Of a stretch of 64,000 nucleotides of DNA, positions 11,608-60,585 are shown piece after piece; position 1 is the first letter of the stretch; every line of letters begins with the position of its first letter. The notes beneath the pieces were generated by a model that saw only the letters and a list, made by a program, of their open reading frames with translations, was not told the origin of the DNA and searched no databases. Made by a program: the position numbers and the translations under genes. The stretch covers positions 4 to 64,003 of the forward strand of contig DHVS01000038.1 in assembly GCA_002412795.1 (NCBI GenBank), read 5' to 3'. Source of the DNA: a bacterium UBP2_UBA5202 (GTDB taxonomy: Bacteria; Edwardsbacteria; AC1; EtOH8).

Positions 11608-11682
11608 GGTTGGTTCCTCCTTATGTTTGGTTGAAATTTACTAAGCGTAAAGCGTGAAGCGGATAGCGTCAAGCGTTAAGCA

Positions 11683-12054
11683 TTACGGGGTATTTTCCTT
11701 CAGACCAACGATCATTTTCCATAACATCCGGCCCACTTCCTGGGATAGGGCATATAACGTGTTAAAATCTTCAGTCTTGAGATATCCAATATCCTTTGCT
11801 AACATTAATTGGGTTTGGAATTCTGCCAGTGATCCGTTGGCGGTATAAAGAAATTGAATATATTCTTTTCTGTTTTTCCGGCCATAACCTTCCGCAATGT
11901 TTGAAGGAATTGAAACCGAGCACCTTCTGATCTGTGAGGTTAAACCATAATCTTCATTGGCTGGAAATAATTTGGTGATCTGGTATAAAGCTACACATAA
12001 TTTGTAGGACTTTTGCCACACTATCAGGTCGGCAAAACTCTTTGTTGGTTGCAT
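11683..12054 (-). CDS. Four-helix-bundle protein (23S rRNA intervening-sequence / Avd-like family), copy 1
   Basis: Family signature W....L......T..FP........QIRR...SI..NIAEG. It lies between the SPFH and NfeD genes. Confidence 0.8.
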   Translation of the reverse strand: MQPTKSFADLIVWQKSYKLCVALYQITKLFPANEDYGLTSQIRRCSVSIPSNIAEGYGRKNRKEYIQFLYTANGSLAEFQTQLMLAKDIGYLKTEDFNTLYALSQEVGRMLWKMIVGLKENTP

Positions 12055-12103
12055 ACAATCCTTATTCTATGCTCAAACAACGCTTTTCGCTAAACGCTGA
12101 CCG

Positions 12104-13381
12104 CTATACGCTCTTGGTTACCTTAAGCGTCATGCCTTTTACTTCCAATACCTTGATCTTGGTGCCTTCGGCGATCTCGGTCTCCGACCAGGCGCTCCAG
12201 TGGGTTCCTTCCACAAACACGCTTCCGCCGTCCTTGTTCACCAGGGTCCGGGCGTCGCCCTCCTGGCCCAGCAGGCCCTTGTCGCCGGAGACGGGTTTGG
12301 TCCTCAATGTCTTGATGGACAGCCAGACCCCGATGATGAAGAAGGCCGCGGTGGCCGCCACCACCGGGATGATAACCTGGAGCGAGGCCCGCAGGGCCGG
12401 GTCCGGCGAGTTGAACAGCATTACCGATCCAATGAACATGGCAACTATCCCTCCTATGCTAAGTATTCCGTGCGAGGCTATTTTGACGTCCAGGATAAAC
12501 AGCACGATGGCCAGTATTATCAGCAGCATTCCGGCGTAGCTGACCGAAAGGGTCTGGAAGGCGAAGAAGGCCAGGATCAGCGAGATGGCGCCCACCACCC
12601 CGGGCAGTATGGCCCCGGGATTGGAGAACTCAAAGTAAAGGCCCAGCAGCCCCAGCATGAAGAAGATGTAGGCGATGTTGGGATCGGAGATCACGGACAG
12701 GAACCTGTCCCGCCAGTTCATCTCTACTGTCACCGTTCGGGCCAGCTTGATGTTCAGGGTCACAGTGTCCCGGTCCATGGCTATCTTCCGGCCGTCCAGG
12801 GAATCCAACAGGGCGGAGGTGTTGGGGGCCACCAGGTCAATGACTTTGCGTTTTAAGGCCTCTGTCTCGGACAGAGAGACGCTGTGGCGGACGGCGGAGT
12901 CGGCCCAGGCCACGTTGCGGCCCCGTTTCTCGGCGATGGAGCGGATGTAGGCCGCGGCGTCATTTGTTACCTTGCCGGACATGGTGCTGTCCATCTGTCC
13001 GCTCTGCCCGATGGAGACCGGGTGGGCCGCCCCGATGCTGGTTCCCGGCGCCATGGCCGCCAGGTGGGCCGACATGGTGATGAAGGCCCCGGCCGAGGCC
13101 GCCCGCGATCCCTGGGGCGCCACGAACACTATCACCGGGACCGGCGAGGCCATGATGCTCTTGATCACCTGGCGCATGGACTGGTCCAGCCCGCCCGGGG
13201 TGTCCATCTCGATGATCAGGCACTCGGCCTGCTCCGCTTGGGCCCGTTCAACGGCCTGGACCATGAACCGGGCCGAGGCCGGGCTGACGGCGCTTTCCAC
13301 CCGGGCCACCAGTACCTGGGAGGCTTCGGCCATTCCGCTAACTAAAATTAGCGAAAGAACAAACAATAACAACTTCTTCAT
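12104..13381 (-). CDS. NfeD-family membrane-bound serine protease (ClpP-fold), partner of the SPFH protein
   Basis: N-terminal ClpP-like domain, central TM helices, and a C-terminal OB-fold NfeD domain. Confidence 0.8.
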   Translation of the reverse strand: MKKLLLFVLSLILVSGMAEASQVLVARVESAVSPASARFMVQAVERAQAEQAECLIIEMDTPGGLDQSMRQVIKSIMASPVPVIVFVAPQGSRAASAGAFITMSAHLAAMAPGTSIGAAHPVSIGQSGQMDSTMSGKVTNDAAAYIRSIAEKRGRNVAWADSAVRHSVSLSETEALKRKVIDLVAPNTSALLDSLDGRKIAMDRDTVTLNIKLARTVTVEMNWRDRFLSVISDPNIAYIFFMLGLLGLYFEFSNPGAILPGVVGAISLILAFFAFQTLSVSYAGMLLIILAIVLFILDVKIASHGILSIGGIVAMFIGSVMLFNSPDPALRASLQVIIPVVAATAAFFIIGVWLSIKTLRTKPVSGDKGLLGQEGDARTLVNKDGGSVFVEGTHWSAWSETEIAEGTKIKVLEVKGMTLKVTKSV

Positions 13382-21370: not shown

Positions 21371-21457
21371 TTACTTCTTTTTCTTCGCGACCTTCTTGAC
21401 GACCTTCTTCACTGCCTTCTTGACGACCTTCTTGGCGGGTTTTTTTGCGCAAGCCAT
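21371..21457 (-). CDS. Lysine-rich 28-aa micro-protein (MACAKKPAKKVVKKAVKKVVKKVAKKKK)
   Basis: A strong GGAGGTG Shine-Dalgarno sequence lies 7 nt upstream of the ATG. A second, 13-aa Lys-rich micro-ORF (MPAKKKAAKKKKK) with an identical SD lies at 21243-21284. Confidence 0.3.
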   Translation of the reverse strand: MACAKKPAKKVVKKAVKKVVKKVAKKKK

Positions 21458-21469
21458 TATTTTCACCTC

Positions 21470-21960
21470 CTTAAGAATCAAAGTATTAGTAACTTGTGTT
21501 AATTAAGTACAAATATACAACATATTGTATATTTGTCAAGAAAAAAAATAAAAATATTTTTTAGTGGATAACTTTTATTACATTGCAAAAAAATGAAAGT
21601 ATTCTAAAACCCTTTAAAATCAATGGTCTTAGAGCATTAAATAATGGTTGTTTGCCTATAGTAAAAAAAATATCCACAACACAATAGGTAGTGTTGTGGA
21701 TAACTAATTTACTGTTTTTTCAAAGATTTTTCAGGAAATGCGCTGGAAGCATTAAAAGACAAGGGTTTCAAAAGGTTCCCTTCTGAAAAAATTGTACAAC
21801 CCGCATAATCACTATTGTTTTCAAATCTCAAAATAATGAGCGGTGAAAAAAACATGATGGCCAAAAAATATTACAAAGGAAGTCAGCCGGTAATCTGCAG
21901 GCGGTATTTTTACTGGGCAGGATCATTCTCCTCCTGCTGATTTTTGCATTTAACCTATCG
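21470..21960. other. AT-rich (~25-30% GC) non-coding region of about 490 bp with DnaA-box-like sequences
   Basis: One perfect TTATCCACA (rc of 21696-21704) and two 8/9 matches (21670-21678; rc of 21565-21573). Two of them are arms of a perfect palindrome tatccacaacac/gtgttgtggata. Confidence 0.35.
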
Positions 21961-23152: not shown

Positions 23153-24238
23153 ATGCCGGAAAAGACGGTTTATTCGCTGGCCAAGGCCCAGGTGCCGGAG
23201 CTGATCGCCAAACTGCTTAAGTCCCGGAACGAGGTCTGGGCGCCGGTGAAGGGCGAGGGCGGCGACACCTTTTTGGCGCAGATCGATTCGGCCAAGCAGA
23301 TAGCCCCCGAATATGTCAACGGGTTCCTGGGGGCCAAGCGCTATGTGTTCCCCCAGCTGGAGGAGCTGTTCCGCTTCAAGAAGGGCAAGAACGGAACCAC
23401 CCTGCAGACCGAGACGGATCAGCCCCGGGCGGTGATCTGGGGCATCCGGCCTTGCGACATGTCGGCGGTCAACTATTTCGACAGCTTCTTCGGCCAGGGC
23501 GCCAAGTCCGGCCCCGGCTGGAAATCGGGCGATCCGCTGCCTGACCCGCTGTACGAAAAGCGGCGGGAGCGGGTGGTGTTCATCACCCTGGCCTGCAACC
23601 AGGCCGGGCCGAAATGCTTCTGCGTCTGCACCGACTCCGGGCCGTTCCTCTCCAAGGGTTTTGACATCCAGCTGACCGACCTGGGAACCTATTATCTGGT
23701 GGAAGTGGGGAGCACCAAGGGGGAGGAGTTCGTCAAGGAATTCAAGACCCTGTTCGGGACCGGGAACGAGAACGACGTCAAGCTCCGCCGGAAACTGGAA
23801 ACGGAGGCCGAGAAGACCTTCCAGCAGCCGGTCAGTTTCTTCGCCAAGGCCATGCGCAAGCTGGACGGGGGCAAGGTGGACCAGAAGTTCTGGGAGAAGG
23901 TGGCCGGGTACTGCATCGGCTGCGGCGGCTGCATCTACGTCTGCCCCATGTGCAGTTGCTTTGACGTGGACGACAAAATGGAGTCCGATACCGATGGCCT
24001 GCGCTACCGGTCCTGGGACACCTGCGACTTTGCCGGGTTCACCCGCGAGGTCTCGGGACACAACCCCCGGGCCTCCAGGGCCGACCGCCGGAAACGCTGG
24101 TTCTACCACAAGCTGTCCATGGACTATCTGGAAAAGAACCCGGTGATCGGCTGCGTGGGCTGCGGCCGCTGCGTGGTCACCTGCCCCGGCGAGGTGGACA
24201 TGGCCACGGTGGTGAGGTGGATGCGAAAGGTCGAGTGA
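23153..24238 (+). CDS. 4Fe-4S dicluster protein of the AsrA / sulfhydrogenase beta-subunit family
   Basis: Two ferredoxin-type motifs (CIGCGGCIYVCPMC; CVGCGRCVVTCPG) and an N-terminal region typical of AsrA-like proteins. Confidence 0.7.
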   Translation: MPEKTVYSLAKAQVPELIAKLLKSRNEVWAPVKGEGGDTFLAQIDSAKQIAPEYVNGFLGAKRYVFPQLEELFRFKKGKNGTTLQTETDQPRAVIWGIRPCDMSAVNYFDSFFGQGAKSGPGWKSGDPLPDPLYEKRRERVVFITLACNQAGPKCFCVCTDSGPFLSKGFDIQLTDLGTYYLVEVGSTKGEEFVKEFKTLFGTGNENDVKLRRKLETEAEKTFQQPVSFFAKAMRKLDGGKVDQKFWEKVAGYCIGCGGCIYVCPMCSCFDVDDKMESDTDGLRYRSWDTCDFAGFTREVSGHNPRASRADRRKRWFYHKLSMDYLEKNPVIGCVGCGRCVVTCPGEVDMATVVRWMRKVE

Positions 24239-24382
24239 CCTCACCCGCCCGGGCTGCCCGCGAAAAACGAGAAAAGGGACGAAAAATAATTCATGGTATC
24301 TACCGGGGTTGCCCACGAAAAACACTAAAAGGCACGGAACATTTAAATTTTACGATGGCTTGAAAAAACGCGGATAAAGTAT

Positions 24383-24763
24383 ATGAAGGTCGAATTATTA
24401 TATAAAGATGAGAGTTATGCTATAGTAGGAGCATGTTTCAATGTATATAAAAATATGGGGAGTGGGTTTTTAGAGCCAGTTAATCAGGAATGTTTGGAGA
24501 TTGAATTTGAAAGACAAAAAATTCCATTTGAGCCGCAGAAAGAACTTGCCTTAAAATATCTGGACAGAACATTAAAGCAAAAGTATAAGCCGGACTTTGT
24601 TTGTTACGGAAAAATAGTGGTGGAGATCAAAGCGGTAGAAAAACTCATTGATGATCACAGGTCACAAATGTTGAATTACCTTAACGCCACCGGTTTTAAA
24701 TTGGGCTTGCTGGTTAATTTCGGCCACCACCCCAGGATGGAAAACGAAAGATTTATCCTTTAA
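24383..24763 (+). CDS. GxxExxY protein (PD-(D/E)xK-like, PF13366 family)
   Basis: Motif IVGACFNVYKNMGSGFLEPVNQECLEIEF. The gene is AT-rich and inserted between the asrA-like and asrB-like genes. Confidence 0.8.
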   Translation: MKVELLYKDESYAIVGACFNVYKNMGSGFLEPVNQECLEIEFERQKIPFEPQKELALKYLDRTLKQKYKPDFVCYGKIVVEIKAVEKLIDDHRSQMLNYLNATGFKLGLLVNFGHHPRMENERFIL

Positions 24764-24833
24764 ATCAAACTCCCGCTAAAAATAGAAAAATATTTTTTCG
24801 TGTATTTAGTGGGCAAAACCAAAAGTAAGAGCT

Positions 24834-25670
24834 ATGAATCCAAATATCTATGTTCCTTATATAGCCGAGATCACCGACATCAAGCAGGAGACCGGCGACA
24901 CCCGGACCTACGATGTCAGGATAAAGAACAAGGAAGAGGCCAGGCTGTTCCGTTCCCGGCCCGGCCAGTTCGTGGAGGCCTCGGTGTTCGGGGCCGGCGA
25001 GGCCCCCTTTGGGCTGACCACATCGCCCAAAGAGCCCGGCGTGATGACCTTCACCGTGCGGGCCTGCGGCAAGGTGACCAACGCCCTGGCCGAAATGAAG
25101 AAGGGCGACGAGATAGGCATCAAAGGCCCCCTGGGCAACAGCTTTTTGGACAAGATAGATTCCAAGGGCAAGGACATCCTGGTGATCGGGGGCGGCATCG
25201 GACTTCCGCCGCTGCGCTCCATGATCGACCACATCTTCAACAACCGGGCCGACTACCGGGAGTTCACCATCCTCTACGGCGCCAGGACCCCGGCCGACCG
25301 GGTCTACAAATACCAGTTGAGCGATTGGGAAAATAAGACCGACCTCAAGCTGATCCAGACGGTGGACGTGGCCGACAAGGACTGGACCGGCAACGTGGGG
25401 GTGGTCACCACTTTGTTCCCCAAGCTCAAGCTGGACATACCCAACACCGTGGTCTACACTTGCGGCCCGCCAATAATGATCAAGTTCGTGATCATTGAGC
25501 TTTTAAAGCTGGGTCTGCCGGAGAAGCAGATAGTGTCCACCTTGGAGCGCTACATGAAGTGCGGGGTGGGGAAATGCGGGCACTGCTGCATCGGGAACAA
25601 GTACGTCTGCACCGACGGGCCGGTGTTCGATTATACCGAGATCAAGGGGCTGGCCGAAGAGGCTTTCTAA
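24834..25670 (+). CDS. FAD/NAD(P)-binding plus 2Fe-2S oxidoreductase of the AsrB / sulfhydrogenase gamma / PyrK-like family
   Basis: Ferredoxin-reductase-type FAD and NAD binding (RTYD/S, GGGIGLPP) and a C-terminal C..C..C cluster (CGVGKCGHCC). Confidence 0.8.
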   Translation: MNPNIYVPYIAEITDIKQETGDTRTYDVRIKNKEEARLFRSRPGQFVEASVFGAGEAPFGLTTSPKEPGVMTFTVRACGKVTNALAEMKKGDEIGIKGPLGNSFLDKIDSKGKDILVIGGGIGLPPLRSMIDHIFNNRADYREFTILYGARTPADRVYKYQLSDWENKTDLKLIQTVDVADKDWTGNVGVVTTLFPKLKLDIPNTVVYTCGPPIMIKFVIIELLKLGLPEKQIVSTLERYMKCGVGKCGHCCIGNKYVCTDGPVFDYTEIKGLAEEAF

Positions 25671-27858: not shown

Positions 27859-27936
27859 GCCCGACCCCTCCCTTGATCCCTCCCCGCTGCGGAGAGGGAT
27901 AATATGAAGGTTGAAAAGGTTATAACCTGAGTTAGG

Positions 27937-28130
27937 AAGGCTGTAACTACGGTTAGCAAGGTCCTGACCAAGGCCGGAAGGATTCTAACCAAGGTTAGCA
28001 AGGTTATTACCTAGGTCGGAAGGGTTATTACCTAGGTCGGAAGGGTTATTACCTGGGCCGGAAGGGTTATTACCTAGGTCGGAAGGGTTCTTACCTGGGT
28101 TACAAGGGTTATTACCATAGTTAGCAGCTT
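27937..28130. repeat. Array of about nine degenerate 21-bp tandem repeats (consensus aagggttattacctaggtcgg)
   Basis: Directly visible head-to-tail units. They are preceded by related AAGGTTG(A/T)AAAGGTT motifs at 27908-27925. Confidence 0.85.
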
Positions 28131-28229
28131 CCGTTAGTGAAGCCGATACGATAAGGCACCTAATGGGACGCGGATTTATTTTTAGGGTAGGCACTTTCCT
28201 GGCAGGAGAGGGAAATTTAATGAGGGCGT

Positions 28230-28766
28230 ATGAAATATTTCAAAGTATTTTTATCGTTGGTCATTGTCACTACTGGTTGTGCCAGCACAACCCGGAGAGT
28301 GACCCCAGCAAAAATTGAGTTGACGGAAACATTAATTGTTGAACAGCCTAAGGAAAATAAAATAAGTCAAGAGGCTTTTATAATAAAGGTTTCTGAATTA
28401 AAAGGGAAAATAAGGATTTTAAACAGCAGGCAGTCCAATTCGCAAATATTATCAATAAATGACCAATTAGATTCTTTAGTCGTTAGCGAAGATCTGGCAC
28501 GTGATAGGTCAATCAATAAAGGATTGGGGTGGGGTCTTGTTGCCGGCATTTTACCAGCGCCTTTTATTTATGTGAAAGAAAACGGCACTGAATTTGGGAG
28601 TTTAATATCAGTGGTTTCCATATCGTCTTTGATTTGGTTAGGTACTACTACCGGTTGGTTGATTGGTCAGCATAAATGTAAATACATTCAAAAAAGGACT
28701 TATCAAAAACTCATAGACATAATTAACGAGCACAACAGTTTGGTTGGTTGGCAAAATAAACCATAA
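28230..28766 (+). CDS. AT-rich hypothetical lipoprotein
   Basis: Signal peptide with an IVTTGC lipobox. The gene is low-GC and sits between two hydrogenase membrane-subunit genes. Confidence 0.45.
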   Translation: MKYFKVFLSLVIVTTGCASTTRRVTPAKIELTETLIVEQPKENKISQEAFIIKVSELKGKIRILNSRQSNSQILSINDQLDSLVVSEDLARDRSINKGLGWGLVAGILPAPFIYVKENGTEFGSLISVVSISSLIWLGTTTGWLIGQHKCKYIQKRTYQKLIDIINEHNSLVGWQNKP

Positions 28767-28797
28767 AGCATCATAATTCGTAATTTCAGATAAACAT

Positions 28798-34187: not shown

Positions 34188-34243
34188 GGCATTTACAATT
34201 CGGGATTTACCATTTGGAAACTTTCCGGTGGAGAGAAGAGTAA

Positions 34244-34657
34244 ATGGCGACTTTTAAGAAATTTGAAGAAGTGGATATTTGGATAAAAGCGCGTGAATTG
34301 ACCAAGCGGATTTACGAAGCCTCTCGCAAAGGGGCTTTTGCCAAGGATTATTCTTTGGGCGACCAGATGAGGCGGGCATCGGTGTCGATCATGTCAAATA
34401 TTGCCGAGGGTTTTAATCGTGGCGGGAACAAAGAGCTTGTCCAATATTTGGCAATCGCCAAAGGATCTGCGGCAGAGATACAAAGCCAGTTATATGTCGC
34501 ACTTGACCAACAGTATATACCCAAAGAAGTATTTAACGATTTGTACAATTTAACAGACCAAATTGCAGCCGGAATATTTTCTTTTATAATTTATCTCAAT
34601 AAAAGCAATATCAAAGGGATAAAATATAAATACGCCCAAATTCCAAATGGTAAATAA
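34244..34657 (+). CDS. Four-helix-bundle protein (IVS/Avd-like), copy 3
   Basis: Family signature (DIWIKA...[19 protein letters not shown]). Confidence 0.8.
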
Positions 34658-38705: not shown

Positions 38706-39035
38706 ATGACACATCAAGAAACAAAGGAACATATCGCAGCGGTCATCCGCGATGAGTTCAAAGAAAAAAACATCGCAATAAAAAACATGATCCTCTTTGG
38801 AAGCCAGGCGCGGCAGAATGCCGGGCCCGGCAGCGACTGGGATTTTATGGTAAGCGTGGCGGAAGAATTGGGGTTCATTGAAAAATCAAAAATAACAACC
38901 AGCATTCAAAGAAAGCTGGCGGCAAAGCATCTCTCGGCCGATATCATCATCAAATCCGAAATGAAAATGAATCAGGAGCGCAATAACGTCGGCTTCATAA
39001 CTTATTACGCGCTTAAAGATGGAGTCCCGGCATGA
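38706..39035 (+). CDS. Minimal nucleotidyltransferase (MntA-like antitoxin component)
   Basis: FGSQARQNAGPGSDWD motif (GS-x9-13-DxD). Confidence 0.8.
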   Translation: MTHQETKEHIAAVIRDEFKEKNIAIKNMILFGSQARQNAGPGSDWDFMVSVAEELGFIEKSKITTSIQRKLAAKHLSADIIIKSEMKMNQERNNVGFITYYALKDGVPA

Positions 39036-39427
39036 ATGAAGAGATCGTAAAATTGTGGCTCCTAAAAACGGATAACGATTTTAAAACCGGCAAGGATGAA
39101 CTGGCTACGGAAAGCCCGGCAACGGATACCATTTGCTTTCATATGCAACAGTGCGTGGAAAAACATCTTAAGGCATTTCTGGTTTCCAAAGGCGTGGAAA
39201 TATCAAAATCCCACAATCTATCCCTTATCCTGCAGCAGTGCGCCGACGTTGATCCTGATTTTGAAAAACTTAAATCCAGCGGAGCTGATGAATTAACCCC
39301 ATATGCAGTAAATGCCAGATACCCGGATGATTTTTATATGCCGTCTCAGGAAGAAACTCAGAATGCCGTCCGGATGGCGGAAAAAGTGAATACCTTTGTC
39401 CTTGCAAAAATAAAACCATCAACATGA
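39032..39427 (+). CDS. HEPN domain protein (HepT-like toxin component)
   Basis: A 4-nt overlap with the NT gene. A HEPN-fold helix set with a conserved ARY...Y segment. Confidence 0.7.
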   Translation: MNEEIVKLWLLKTDNDFKTGKDELATESPATDTICFHMQQCVEKHLKAFLVSKGVEISKSHNLSLILQQCADVDPDFEKLKSSGADELTPYAVNARYPDDFYMPSQEETQNAVRMAEKVNTFVLAKIKPST

Positions 39428-60500: not shown

Positions 60501-60585
60501 GAAAAAGGAGCGGTTTTCGTTTGTTTCGTGTCCTTTCGTGCCTGCGCGCTGAAGCGCTTTGGCGCGCAAGCGTGGGAAGGGTATC

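Follow-up and report, generated by a model that had tools for sequence, protein, structure and literature searches.

A GxxExxY nuclease gene with conserved inverted arms in a hydrogenase-type operon of Candidatus Edwardsbacteria: an apparently undescribed kind of gene cassette

A small gene of the GxxExxY family lies between two hydrogenase-type genes in a contig of Candidatus Edwardsbacteria, accompanied by short direct and inverted repeats. This locus raises the question of whether the gene was inserted there and, if so, what part the repeats play. The whole stretch of DNA that was analysed, referred to here as the window, is 64,000 nt long, and all of the features described are on its forward strand. 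The segment of interest (24239–24833) is compact (595 nt, ~0.6 kb) and has a GC content of 0.34–0.38, compared with 0.60–0.675 in the flanking genes; the initial annotation had reported the AT-rich gene and placed its features correctly to within a few bases. The upstream host gene (23153–24238, 361 aa, with its TGA stop at 24236–24238) encodes a Fer4_22 protein of sulfhydrogenase-beta/AsrA type (PF17179, E = 2e-27; ShyB 168.8, HydB 152 and AsrA 123.9 bits), and the downstream gene (24834–25670, 278 aa) encodes an FAD/NAD-binding Fe-S protein of hydrogenase-gamma/AsrB type. For both genes the sulfhydrogenase beta/gamma models (ShyB/HydB and HydG/ShyC) score at least as high as AsrA/AsrB, and all scores are below the equivalog cut-offs. 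The earlier description of a divided AsrA/AsrB pair was thus loose in its naming, and we refer to the site as the hydB|hydG junction.

The gene between them (24383–24763, 126 aa) was proposed in the initial annotation to encode a PD-(D/E)XK-like GxxExxY protein, and the profile HMMs agree: the product scores 131.2 bits with PF13366 PDDEXK_3 (cut-off 22), its sole Pfam match, and 130.9 bits with TIGR04256 GxxExxY over residues 10–124 (cut-off 35), with E = 3e-38 for GxxExxY/PDDEXK_3. By these cut-offs it is a member of the GxxExxY family. The family signature reads GFLEPVN in the window copy, with G28 and E31 present and N at position 34, where L001, L002, L014 and at least 90% of 24 homologues have Y; this Y34N change leaves the family assignment by HMM unaffected. 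The PD-(D/E)XK core is an alpha-beta-beta-beta-alpha-beta fold with the catalytic D ... (D/E)-x-K residues on the central beta-sheet. In the window protein D71, E81 and K83 are intact, and they are invariant in the alignment of the 24 homologues. The AF2 model (pLDDT 93.5) has the topology H-H-E-E-E-E-E-H-E-E; its best PDB match by Foldseek is Cas4 SSO0001 (E = 7e-4), and the other nearest solved folds are LHK-exonuclease, alkaline exonuclease, lambda exonuclease, MGME1 and Hjc. Both the catalytic residues and the modelled core topology are those of the PD-(D/E)XK superfamily, and the product is predicted to be a minimal nuclease. A single search returned 4986 GxxExxY/PDDEXK_3 homologues; the family name is scarcely mentioned in the literature searched, in which we found no demonstration of nuclease activity, binding or mobility for any GxxExxY protein. 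PADLOC gave no matches, and PHROGs gave weak "endonuclease" matches only.

Two repeat units precede the gene. Unit 1 (24248–24302) consists of a degenerate left arm (24254–24286; CTGCCCGCGAAAAACGAGAAAAGGGACGAAAAA) and a tail of ~20 nt, and unit 2 (24303–24342) contains a left arm (24309–24339; TTGCCCACGAAAAACACTAAAAGGCACGGAA) with CAC(G/T)AAA units 9–10 nt apart. The direct repeats 24248–24287 and 24303–24342 are 78% identical over 40 nt and 55 nt apart from start to start, and their local-alignment score of 17.5 was reached by none of 2000 dinucleotide shuffles. An AT-rich leader of 40 nt (24343–24382) separates the left arm from the start codon. Downstream of the gene, the right arm (24793–24816; TTTTTTCGTGTATTTAGTGGGCAA), which has the same sequence in the window, L001 and L002, is an inverted copy of the left arm: 24309–24330 (TTGCCCACGAAAAACACTAAAA) and 24795–24816 (TTTTCGTGTATTTAGTGGGCAA) are complementary at 19 of 22 nt, with a score of 14.5 that one of 2000 shuffles reached. 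Both the direct and the inverted repeats noted earlier therefore stand up to a statistical test. The right arm is followed by a 17-nt spacer (24817–24833; AACCAAAAGTAAGAGCT) that is conserved in relatives and is presumed to hold the downstream gene's ribosome-binding region. An inner left-type arm (24772–24791; CCCGCTAAAAATAGAAAAAT) folds locally with the right arm into a hairpin (24772–24813; −15.1 kcal/mol, z −4.57, 0/200 shuffles); this hairpin, like the third upstream unit seen in close relatives, is a detail absent from the initial annotation.

Elsewhere in the 64 kb the motif is scarce. There are five occurrences of TTGCCCACGAAAAA with up to two mismatches, against 0.67 expected, three of them inside the cassette, and the only paired unit occurrence outside it is a solitary right-arm-like run between convergent genes (60510–60545; GCGGTTTTCGTTTGTTTCGTGTCCTTTCGTGCCTGC). 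TRF missed the 55-nt upstream units and reported only a 10-nt CCCACGAAAA period, in L001. Direct repetition of arm copies abutting the ORF is not significant in the window itself (38/300 shuffles), and the window has no Rfam matches.

The relatives indicate how the junction came to be occupied. Those whose upstream protein is 96–97% identical (L001/L004, L002 and L014) have the same GxxExxY gene and repeats there, with three copies of the upstream unit in L001 and L002 compared with two in the window, and every more distant relative differs. The junction of L008 is a 53-bp spacer only, so that its hydB and hydG genes are adjacent. L177 (79% identity) has arms without an ORF, including a segment (TTCCACGAAAAGTAGTGTTTTTCGTGG) homologous to the inner left-type arm, and L012 has an ORF-less hairpin. 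Other relatives carry four-helix-bundle 23S_rRNA_IVP cassettes (L007, L009, L011 and L178), a T9SS-tailed secreted-protein gene (L006, L010, L013) or both (L011 and L178), and the four-helix-bundle cassettes are also flanked by inverted arms. The likeness to four-helix-bundle insertions that the initial annotation had drawn is borne out, since those cassettes occupy the same junction. Distant relatives with the same gene at this position and no repeats, the case that had been named as counting against an insertion, were not found. The low GC relative to the flanks and the polymorphic junction together argue for insertion, and the comparison shows the cassette to be a probable acquisition in the ancestor of a Candidatus Edwardsbacteria sub-lineage, in the spacer between co-transcribed hydrogenase-type genes. 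A relic of the 3′ end of the ORF in L177 would have established loss rather than gain; the similarity there is not significant (436/1000 shuffles).

Since its acquisition the nuclease gene has evolved together with its neighbours. Nucleotide divergence from L001 and L002 is 4.5–5.8% in the nuclease gene and 5–7% in the flanking genes, and the codon changes are mostly synonymous (synonymous to nonsynonymous, 18:4 and 14:3). The similar divergence and the synonymous excess show, as read from these alignments, an intact gene that has been vertically inherited under purifying selection.

The arms are shared well beyond this lineage. Homologues on unrelated contigs, 42–74% identical, have the same architecture on both sides, namely CAC(G/T)AAA units with an 8–10-nt period and CCAC...GTGG ends (CCCAC/GTGGG at the outer ends of the window cassette), and the motif is kept while protein identity drops to 42%. 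Inverted arms are significant in 12 of 17 independent homologue flanks (≤3/300 shuffles each) by local alignment against shuffles, which was used instead of RNA duplexfold between 150-nt flanks because the latter over-extended and was uninformative. Clusters of the heptamers are confined to the gene borders, on the plus strand upstream and on the minus strand downstream, and variant motifs (CGCGAAA, GATGAA) go with sister proteins. The arms are arranged differently from locus to locus (L L ORF R; L R ORF R; L R ORF L R) and also occur singly, so an arm does not need a fixed partner to pair with. In eight of 19 loci, direct repeats of arms or hairpins of 25–145 nt and 91–97% identity abut the ORF. 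The upstream neighbour is co-oriented with the GxxExxY gene in 18/18 loci, and homologues that are ~70% identical occupy unrelated sites, beside hydrogenase, Na/Ca exchanger and TPR-CHAT genes and in what appear by eye to be restriction/defence operons. Across bacteria, then, these sequences show a GxxExxY family that apparently travels with its arm motif, co-oriented inside host transcription units. Scans of the window and of 20 related loci, 18 of them GxxExxY loci, gave no Rfam match to the motif, and one tRNA was the sole match. None of the 20 is in rRNA, so these loci do not confirm the statement of the initial annotation that the family is also known from intervening-sequence-like contexts. 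Arm 16-mers do not occur in the literature searched. DnaA boxes, boxA and tRNA T-arms bear only a weak resemblance to the arm ends. A nuclease cassette with conserved inverted arms is apparently an undescribed kind of gene cassette.

Signs of recent movement were sought in copy number and at the junctions. Identical proteins (P0066, P0075 and P0120) are each always in a single genomic context, and thus give no sign of recent transposition. There is no second GxxExxY copy in the 64-kb window or in any 4–20-kb locus, and the 20-kb loci L040 and L042 have no solo arms away from the gene, compared with one in the window. A 424-kb Treponema plasmid has the hairpin at three places. The arms are thus low in copy number in the window and the plasmid, and a REPIN-like population is not supported. 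Junctions read at the simple arm-ORF-arm loci show no evident target-site duplication and no direct duplication outside the arms.

The reading that we favour, tentatively and at somewhat less than an even chance, is of a promoterless nuclease cassette expressed by read-through of a host operon, with arms serving as sequence-specific cis sites where cassettes are gained and lost at hairpins. In a consensus scan of 23900–25100 there was no terminator-like call anywhere, and the only two promoter-like calls were within the ORF region, leaving the leader and arms with none; together with the invariably co-oriented upstream neighbour, this argues for read-through, and the gene would be translated from its own start. 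The arms would act by their sequence and not as a mere RNA stem, and may extrude in DNA as hairpins or cruciforms. An ORF with one hairpin could recombine with a resident hairpin to give hairpin-ORF-hairpin, and recombination between copies could leave a solo hairpin or arms, as at the L012 and L177 junctions. Gain and loss of this kind are suggested by the near-identical direct copies abutting the ORF and by the arms-only and hairpin-only alleles at the orthologous junction. The arms are most likely the recognition or nicking sites of the encoded nuclease, in a logic akin to that of RAYT with REPIN or of an integrase with attC, with a different enzyme. Several observations count against this reading: the single context of identical proteins, the missing target-site duplication at simple loci, the low copy number of the arms, the viral contigs in which the motif is frequent with no GxxExxY gene, and, in the window copy, the non-significant direct repetition and the Y34N change.

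The main rival is an IVS-like RNA element, a possibility that we rate below the favoured reading and consider doubtful, in which the arms would pair in the operon transcript as a ~22-bp stem and loop out the cassette, and host RNase III would cut the stem, freeing the cassette mRNA and separating the hydB and hydG messages; the arms would be kept for this RNA function and the nuclease would be cargo. RNase III needs roughly two turns of double-stranded RNA, for which arms of 22–30 nt suffice. Both the MFE and the centroid structure of the 595-nt cassette contain the pairing of the left arm 24309–24339 with the right arm, and the arms joined in one construct give −26 kcal/mol (z −5.5), but the cassette as a whole folds no more stably than its shuffles (z +0.37). 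The strict co-orientation and the lack of a called terminator-like site suit a transcript element, as do the ORF-less hairpins, which resemble short ORF-less IVSs, and the armed IVS-family cassettes at the same junction in relatives. The Coxiella IVS offers a close parallel in its 28-bp terminal stem, S23p ORF, low GC and RNase III cleavage, and in being horizontally acquired and then vertically inherited (PMC4990558). Against the RNA reading, few of the arm mismatches are G.U wobbles (4, compared with 13 A.C and 44 other), so that G.U pairs are not enriched, and conservation of the unit sequence far exceeds the needs of a stem; selection on the arms is, to judge from these mismatches and this conservation, on unit sequence rather than on pairing. 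The variable arm order, the solo arms and the location of all 20 scanned loci outside rRNA also tell against it.

Alternatively, CACGAAA arrays might be free-standing intergenic expression signals used by many genes (an unstructured A/C-rich leader, or the site of a host or phage factor for translation or mRNA stability), beside which GxxExxY genes land or which they carry, the inverted copy being incidental; we think this unlikely. A two-unit pattern has 98 matches in viral contigs, of which 50 carry an unspecified third unit. These tri-unit motifs are mostly in sense orientation just 3′ of a co-oriented gene (37 of the 50 within 90 nt after one, with 11 adjoining a divergent gene), and where an ORF start is called within 90 nt (19/50) the start codon is at a median of 38 nt. 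The contigs that bear them have no GxxExxY gene, and in L119 an arm pair encloses an unrelated 51-aa ORF, so the arms could serve another factor. A protein-alignment scan gave only five loci in viral contigs and none in cultured phages, in which the arm motif was not found either. An expression signal would also accord with the last CAC(G/T)AAA unit at GxxExxY loci, which often merges into the Shine-Dalgarno sequence (CACGAAAGGGG), and with the arms of the ORF-less L177, kept at a divergence at which neutral sequence should be scrambled. It leaves unexplained, however, the antisense copy downstream of nearly every GxxExxY gene, the variant motifs that track sister proteins and the near-identical direct copies abutting the ORF, and the motif is absent from Rfam and the literature searched. 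Far less probable is a conventional autonomous insertion sequence with GxxExxY as transposase, the arms as terminal inverted repeats and the ORF-less hairpins as MITEs. Inverted arms at both ends, ORF-less derivatives, patchy distribution and foreign composition would fit, but the target-site duplication and multiple identical copies of such elements are missing here: the gene is single in the regions scanned, identical copies are never in two contexts, it diverges in step with its neighbours, and no strand-transfer module is obvious in the 126-aa nuclease core. We give a similarly slim chance to a free-standing homing endonuclease gene whose product would cut the empty hydB|hydG junction of relatives, with repair then copying the gene in (intronless homing). 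PD-(D/E)XK homing enzymes exist, and I-Bth0305I is among the weak Foldseek matches of the model; the insertion lies in an intergenic space whose neighbours are conserved and co-oriented, the one junction is shared by several different small-gene cassettes, and a GIY-YIG gene is nested within the GxxExxY gene of L018. Homing enzymes keep one cognate site, however, whereas GxxExxY homologues of ~70% identity occupy unrelated ones, and homing neither needs nor explains conserved arms.

Among known systems, 23S rRNA IVSs such as that of Coxiella burnetii (PMC4990558) share much with the nuclease cassette. Both are small AT-rich elements in which inverted termini of ~22–28 bp can close a stem around an ORF (the 22-nt window arms, with 19 paired, are within the stem length of ~20 bp or more), both have short ORF-less hairpin versions, both are sporadic, with horizontal acquisition followed by vertical inheritance, and both lie within a host transcript and run in its direction; proteins of the IVS family are themselves encoded at the hydB|hydG junction in relatives. 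The window cassette differs in lying between two protein-coding genes of an operon and not in helix 9, 25 or 45 of 23S rRNA, in carrying a PD-(D/E)XK nuclease in place of a four-helix bundle, and in having arms in which a conserved 7-nt unit, common across phyla, recurs periodically. A broader proposal, which we regard as speculative and more doubtful than the favoured reading, is that GxxExxY genes and periodic CACGAAA arms form an unrecognised phylum-spanning class of hairpin-bounded cassettes whose nuclease would target the hairpins of its own arms, in DNA or possibly in operon RNA, so that the cassette enters and leaves operon spacers; four-helix-bundle "23S IVS protein" cassettes would be a sister class and rRNA IVSs a special case that landed in rRNA. 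How rRNA intervening sequences arose and spread has been called unclear (PMC4990558); such a class, if real, would explain where they come from, and an insertion hot spot common to GxxExxY and "IVS protein" cassettes provides a link to both. A conserved periodic cis motif that travels with the gene is also a concrete candidate substrate for the very large GxxExxY/PDDEXK_3 family. For annotation, cassettes of this type can account for AT-rich gaps that split operons in environmental genomes, and ORF-less arm hairpins are possible scars or landing pads.

Integron gene cassettes are likewise promoterless small ORFs co-oriented with upstream transcription, with an imperfect-palindrome site beside the ORF, and site-by-site recombination would give the hairpin-ORF-hairpin and solo-hairpin arrangements seen here. 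No integrase was found among the scanned window ORFs, however, and attI is apparently absent; the arms (CCCACGAAA...TTTCGTGGG) lack, by eye, the R/L-box consensus of attC with its GTTRRRY core, and the nuclease cassettes do not form arrays but occur one at a time in various ordinary operons. Neisserial Correia elements and similar MITEs resemble the arm elements in being inverted-repeat hairpins of ~70–110 nt in operon spacers, co-transcribed with their flanks; the arm elements, by contrast, show no TA or other target duplication, are low in copy number and have a protein-coding version with the same arms. REP/REPIN-RAYT systems (PMC3116915, PMC3337134, PMC5581495) differ in their enzyme, an HUH/Y1 transposase and not a minimal PD-(D/E)XK nuclease, and in repeat abundance, which is tens to hundreds per genome for REP compared with low copy where the cassette repeats can be counted (the 64-kb window, L040, L042 and the Treponema plasmid). 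The GxxExxY gene further differs in being AT-rich, inside operons and ~70% identical across phyla, a composition and identity that point to horizontal transfer. The two systems are alike in having a single-copy nuclease-type gene with cognate short repeats inverted around it, repeats that also occur as singlets and hairpin doublets, vertical inheritance of the gene with purifying selection (in the lineage of the window), and repeat variants that accompany related proteins.

The cassette at 24239-24833 contains a single gene, the sole long ORF native to its AT-rich stretch. This ORF (24383-24763, + strand; 126 aa) matches Pfam PDDEXK_3 (131.2 bits, E 3e-38) and NCBIfam TIGR04256, "GxxExxY protein" (130.9 bits), both over the full length, and the GC content is 0.34-0.38 over 24300-24800 as compared with 0.60-0.675 in both neighbouring genes. 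Two direct repeats of 40 nt (24248-24287 and 24303-24342; 78% identity, 55 nt start to start) lie upstream, and a 22-nt inverted pair (24309-24330 with 24795-24816; 19 of 22 positions complementary) spans the gene. The initial annotation had described this layout of an AT-rich GxxExxY gene, upstream direct repeats and a downstream inverted copy, and the repeats stand up to a statistical check: among 2000 dinucleotide-preserving shuffles, the direct-repeat score was never reached and the inverted-repeat score was reached once. The repeat 14-mer (up to two mismatches) occurs five times in the window against 0.67 expected, with three of the five inside the cassette. An additional left-type arm at 24772-24791 is predicted to fold locally against the right arm into a hairpin (-15.1 kcal/mol, z -4.6). 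No Rfam families or tRNAs were found within the window.

The genes on either side encode a Fer4_22 protein (23153-24238) and an FAD/NAD-binding Fe-S protein (24834-25670); beyond this pair are a HycI protease and Mrp/Mbh-type antiporter subunits. The two flanking genes match both sulfhydrogenase beta/gamma (ShyB/HydB; HydG/ShyC) and AsrA/AsrB, all with scores below the equivalog cut-offs. The name "AsrA/AsrB-like", proposed initially, is acceptable, and "hydrogenase-type beta/gamma pair" would serve at least equally well.

The junction was compared among relatives by scanning with the upstream protein in one genome per species, locating both flanking genes at each locus and reading the intervening DNA; the scan puts the window within Candidatus Edwardsbacteria (UBP2) or close to it. 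Ranked by upstream-protein identity to the window, the closest loci (L001/L004, L002 and L014; 96-97%) carry the GxxExxY gene and repeats as in the window. The nearest outgroup, L177 (79%), has an ORF-less 140-bp spacer (2832-2971) that keeps both arm types, TGA-CCTTCT-CCCGCGAAAGGCACGAAAAT ... TTCCACGAAAAGTAGTGTTTTTCGTGGGCAAAG; a left arm is retained, and a small hairpin with perfect pairing, CCACGAAAA-N7-TTTTCGTGG, sits immediately 5' of the downstream gene, so the arms persist even where the gene is absent. A four-helix-bundle 23S_rRNA_IVP gene and a T9SS-tailed protein occupy the junction in L178 (74%), a T9SS-tailed protein alone in L006 (74%), and a 127-aa four-helix-bundle cassette (GC 0.35-0.38 versus 0.59) in L007 and L009 (73% and 71%). 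The flanking genes are adjacent in L008 (72%; 53-bp spacer), a T9SS protein is present in L010 and L011 (both 70%; L011 also with a four-helix-bundle gene) and in L013 (66%), and the 194-bp spacer of L012 (53%) contains an ORF-less hairpin of CACGGATT-type arms (1963-2058; -32.8 kcal/mol, z -5.5). L012 is a distant Edwardsbacteria relative, and arms of its type also surround GxxExxY genes in L021 and Treponema pTS1.

From these contents it follows that the GxxExxY gene at this junction is restricted to one shallow clade, that at least one relative has the two flanking genes side by side, and that the junction is a hot spot, all of which supports the earlier suggestion of an insertion between normally adjacent genes. 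The same gene at this position in distant relatives without repeats was not found among the junction relatives compared. Nucleotide divergence of the gene between the window and L001 or L002 is 4.5-5.8% (neighbours 5-7%), with synonymous to nonsynonymous changes of 18:4 and 14:3 (neighbours 48:13 and 37:10), from which we infer that the gene was probably acquired once and then inherited vertically with its function kept. The window has two copies of the upstream repeat unit where L001 and L002 each have three; none of these loci differs from the others in its right arm or in the spacer that precedes the start of the downstream gene. A remnant of the ORF's 3' end in L177 would prove loss; the similarity seen there is not significant (reached by 436 of 1000 shuffles).

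The arms are a family-wide feature. A single protein search returned 4986 homologues; the best 120 of these are 65-98% identical, and those with a name are attributed to Planctomycetota, Verrucomicrobiota, Ignavibacteriota, Nitrospinota and others. Nearly all independent homologues whose flanks were read have the same arm plan, with an upstream arm on the coding strand such as (G)CCCACGAAACACACGAAAAAACACGAAAGG and a downstream inverse, TTTCGTG..TTTCGTG..TTTCGTGGG(C), each of two to three 7-nt units at a spacing of 8-10 nt, and with outer ends CCAC...GTGG. When the upstream flank was locally aligned to the reverse-complemented downstream flank, 12 of 17 loci had significant inverted arms (score reached in no more than 3 of 300 shuffles); in the others the flank is truncated, the gene is interrupted, or the arms are short or degenerate. 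Within loci of 10-64 kb the heptamers occur essentially only at gene borders, on the plus strand upstream and the minus strand downstream. Variant units are CGCGAAA (L042, L043, L025), CACGAAT (L020), CACGGATT (L021, the related CAC(A/T)GATT form in L022, and Treponema saccharophilum pTS1) and C(C/A)NGATGAA (L026, L028), and the variant is always common to both arms of one locus. L042 and L043, which share CGCGAAA, group as sisters in the protein tree, as do L026 and L028 with GATGAA; CACGAAA, the widespread state, is presumably ancestral. Arms and gene have been inherited together across proteins as little as 42% identical, which implies that purifying selection acts on the unit sequence itself.

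In the predicted protein the PD-(D/E)XK triad (D71, E81 and K83) is invariant across 24 homologues, as are E31, E36 and E41. Its AlphaFold model is confident (pLDDT 93.5, pTM 0.87), and its closest matches among solved structures are Cas4 SSO0001 (E 7e-4), LHK alkaline exonuclease, MGME1, lambda exonuclease and Hjc resolvases, which are DNA-end and DNA-structure nucleases; these matches are modest (TM-scores 0.4-0.58), and tRNA-splicing and influenza PA endonucleases rank lower. No solved structure related by sequence was found, no PADLOC family matched, and PHROGs gave weak "endonuclease" matches only. At the tyrosine of the GxxExxY signature, codon 34 is AAT (Asn) in the window (24482-24484) and TAT (Tyr) in its three closest relatives, L001, L002 and L014, the tyrosine being at least 90% conserved in the family. 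In another homologue locus (L018, 356-1018) the gene is broken after about codon 33 by an 84-aa GIY-YIG nuclease ORF (483-737; PF01541 E 2e-16), one small nuclease cassette nested inside another.

The cassettes ride in operons. The upstream neighbour is on the GxxExxY strand in all 18 independent loci (binomial probability about 4e-6) and the downstream neighbour in 16 of 18. The left arm usually starts at, or a few bases past, the upstream stop (TAA-CCAC, TAG-CCCAC), its last unit often merges into the Shine-Dalgarno sequence (CACGAAAGGGG-N-ATG), and the start of the next gene is close behind the right arm. No terminator-like sites were called around the window's cassette and no promoter-like sites in its leader, which, with the co-orientation and arm placement, supports probable expression of the gene by read-through from the host operon. 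A 69%-identical GxxExxY cassette from an unrelated organism (L030-L039; L030 5001-5384) interrupts a second hydrogenase operon, lying between the gene for the NiFe large subunit and a Fer4/small subunit (Fer4/Oxidored_q6) gene, a host context of the same kind as the window's. Other contexts are a Na/Ca exchanger and lpxB (L040) and a TPR-CHAT gene (L050), and further ones, judged by eye, resemble restriction or defence operons.

Three readings of the arms were weighed. They can pair: the helix between the right arm and the left arm of the second repeat unit is present in the MFE fold of the 595-nt cassette RNA and also in its centroid, a joined-arm construct reaches -26 kcal/mol (z -5.5), and the ORF-less hairpins of other loci have fold z-scores of -2.7 to -8.3. 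The Coxiella rRNA intervening sequence (IVS) likewise has a 28-bp terminal stem, an S23p ORF and low GC, is excised by RNase III, and was acquired horizontally and then descended vertically (PMC4990558). An IVS-like role in RNA, with processing by RNase III, nevertheless seems rather unlikely. The whole cassette folds no better than its shuffles (z +0.37); mismatches between arms over 440 positions (4 G.U, 13 A.C, 44 other) are mostly unit swaps (G versus T at unit position 4), not wobble; and the arm order, L-L-ORF-(L')R in the window, is elsewhere L-ORF-R, LR-ORF-R, LR-ORF-LR or RL-ORF-RL. For these reasons we argue that pairing is not the sole constraint. Direct copies of an arm or whole hairpin (25-145 nt, 91-97% identical) abut the ORF on both sides in 8 of 19 loci, ending 2-30 nt before the ATG and starting 1-14 nt after the stop, which is a DNA-level signature; the window's own flanking direct repeat is weak (score reached in 38 of 300 shuffles). 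We tentatively favour a model in which the hairpin arms are sequence-specific cis sites in DNA at which cassettes are gained and lost; the encoded nuclease most likely acts on them, and the gene would be expressed by read-through. Recombination of an "ORF plus hairpin" unit with a resident hairpin would leave direct copies bracketing the ORF, and recombination between these would reduce the site to a single hairpin; at this junction L177 has an allele with arms alone and L012 one with a hairpin alone.

That the arms are a free-standing expression signal is improbable in our estimate, and the main argument for it is that the motif also occurs apart from the gene. Viral contigs scanned for exact matches to CCACGAAANNCACGAAA gave at least 120 stretches, a number of the order that chance could yield for a 15-base pattern; a third unit, unspecified in the pattern, directly follows in 50 of 98 occurrences (80 viral loci). 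A co-oriented gene ends no more than 90 nt before 37 of these 50 sites, and 11 are next to a divergent gene; three to four such sites stand between consecutive genes in L058, L068, L072 and L133. The tri-unit motif CCACGAAA-NN-CACGAAA-NN-CACGAA occurs two to four times per viral contig in L058, L068, L072, L080, L090 and L133, in sense orientation in intergenic spacers of co-directional phage genes (by eye, apparently Mu-like and tail) that have no GxxExxY gene close by. Full hairpins are present at a few viral sites (L077 6228-6310, L117, L128), an arm pair in L119 (4108-4335) encloses an unrelated 51-aa ORF, and a GxxExxY protein is encoded at only one of these viral loci. The motif thus exists independently of the gene as well, which is the principal observation left unexplained.

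Where arms could be counted, they are few. The window has one solitary right-arm-like run (TTTTCGTTTGTTTCGTGTCCTTTCGTGCC, 60510-60545), which lies in the space between two convergent genes and away from any GxxExxY gene; a 40-kb stretch of the Treponema plasmid holds one extra hairpin and one solo unit, and its whole 424 kb only three places for its hairpin. Identical GxxExxY proteins from up to 14 contigs are always in a single genomic context, and they thus give no evidence of recent transposition.

Four known systems each share part of this anatomy and none fits fully. rRNA intervening sequences differ in location, REP/REPIN-RAYT (PMC3116915, PMC3337134, PMC5581495) in enzyme class and copy number, integron cassettes in that no integrase is seen here and the arms by eye are unlike attC, and MITEs in that the cassette has neither a target duplication nor a multi-copy population. 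By analogy, the element may work like these systems, and we file it under none of them. The literature searched held nothing on GxxExxY function or flanks, and arm 16-mers were absent from the full texts; as far as we can tell, the architecture is previously undescribed. The window instance is one of thousands of GxxExxY genes, and its value is as an entry point to a family-wide architecture (nuclease gene, conserved periodic arms, operon-riding, and a hot spot common with IVS-protein cassettes) that suggests a testable function.

Several other sites in the window are AT-rich or variable. Two AT-rich pockets contain four-helix-bundle 23S_rRNA_IVP genes: 11683-12054 (- strand, E 4e-42; region 11644-12112), with inverted 34-nt arms of periodic AGCGnnn units that are 76% complementary, and 34244-34657 (+ strand, E 3e-34; region 34205-34655), which splits a membrane-bound hydrogenase-like operon and has a perfect 15-nt inverted pair, ATTTACCATTTGGAA / TTCCAAATGGTAAAT, the right arm overlapping the ORF 3' end. 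A strain-variable insertion between two Proton_antipo genes (27859-28797; compare L002 9386-9471 and L001 9526-10545) includes a ~21-nt tandem array (about 27930-28140), an AT-rich 178-aa ORF without a Pfam family (28230-28766), and short GC hairpin copies at both sides, of which the empty L002 site has a single copy; L001 encodes a 339-aa TPR protein at this spot. The segment 21166-21950 (0.8 kb, 35% GC) has no long ORF and includes a 36-aa lysine-rich one (21371-21481, - strand); L001 and L002 encode an MscS-type channel there. At 38706-39427, an AT-rich nucleotidyltransferase (Polbeta/NTP_transf_2) and HEPN gene pair forms an MNT-HEPN toxin-antitoxin-like module.
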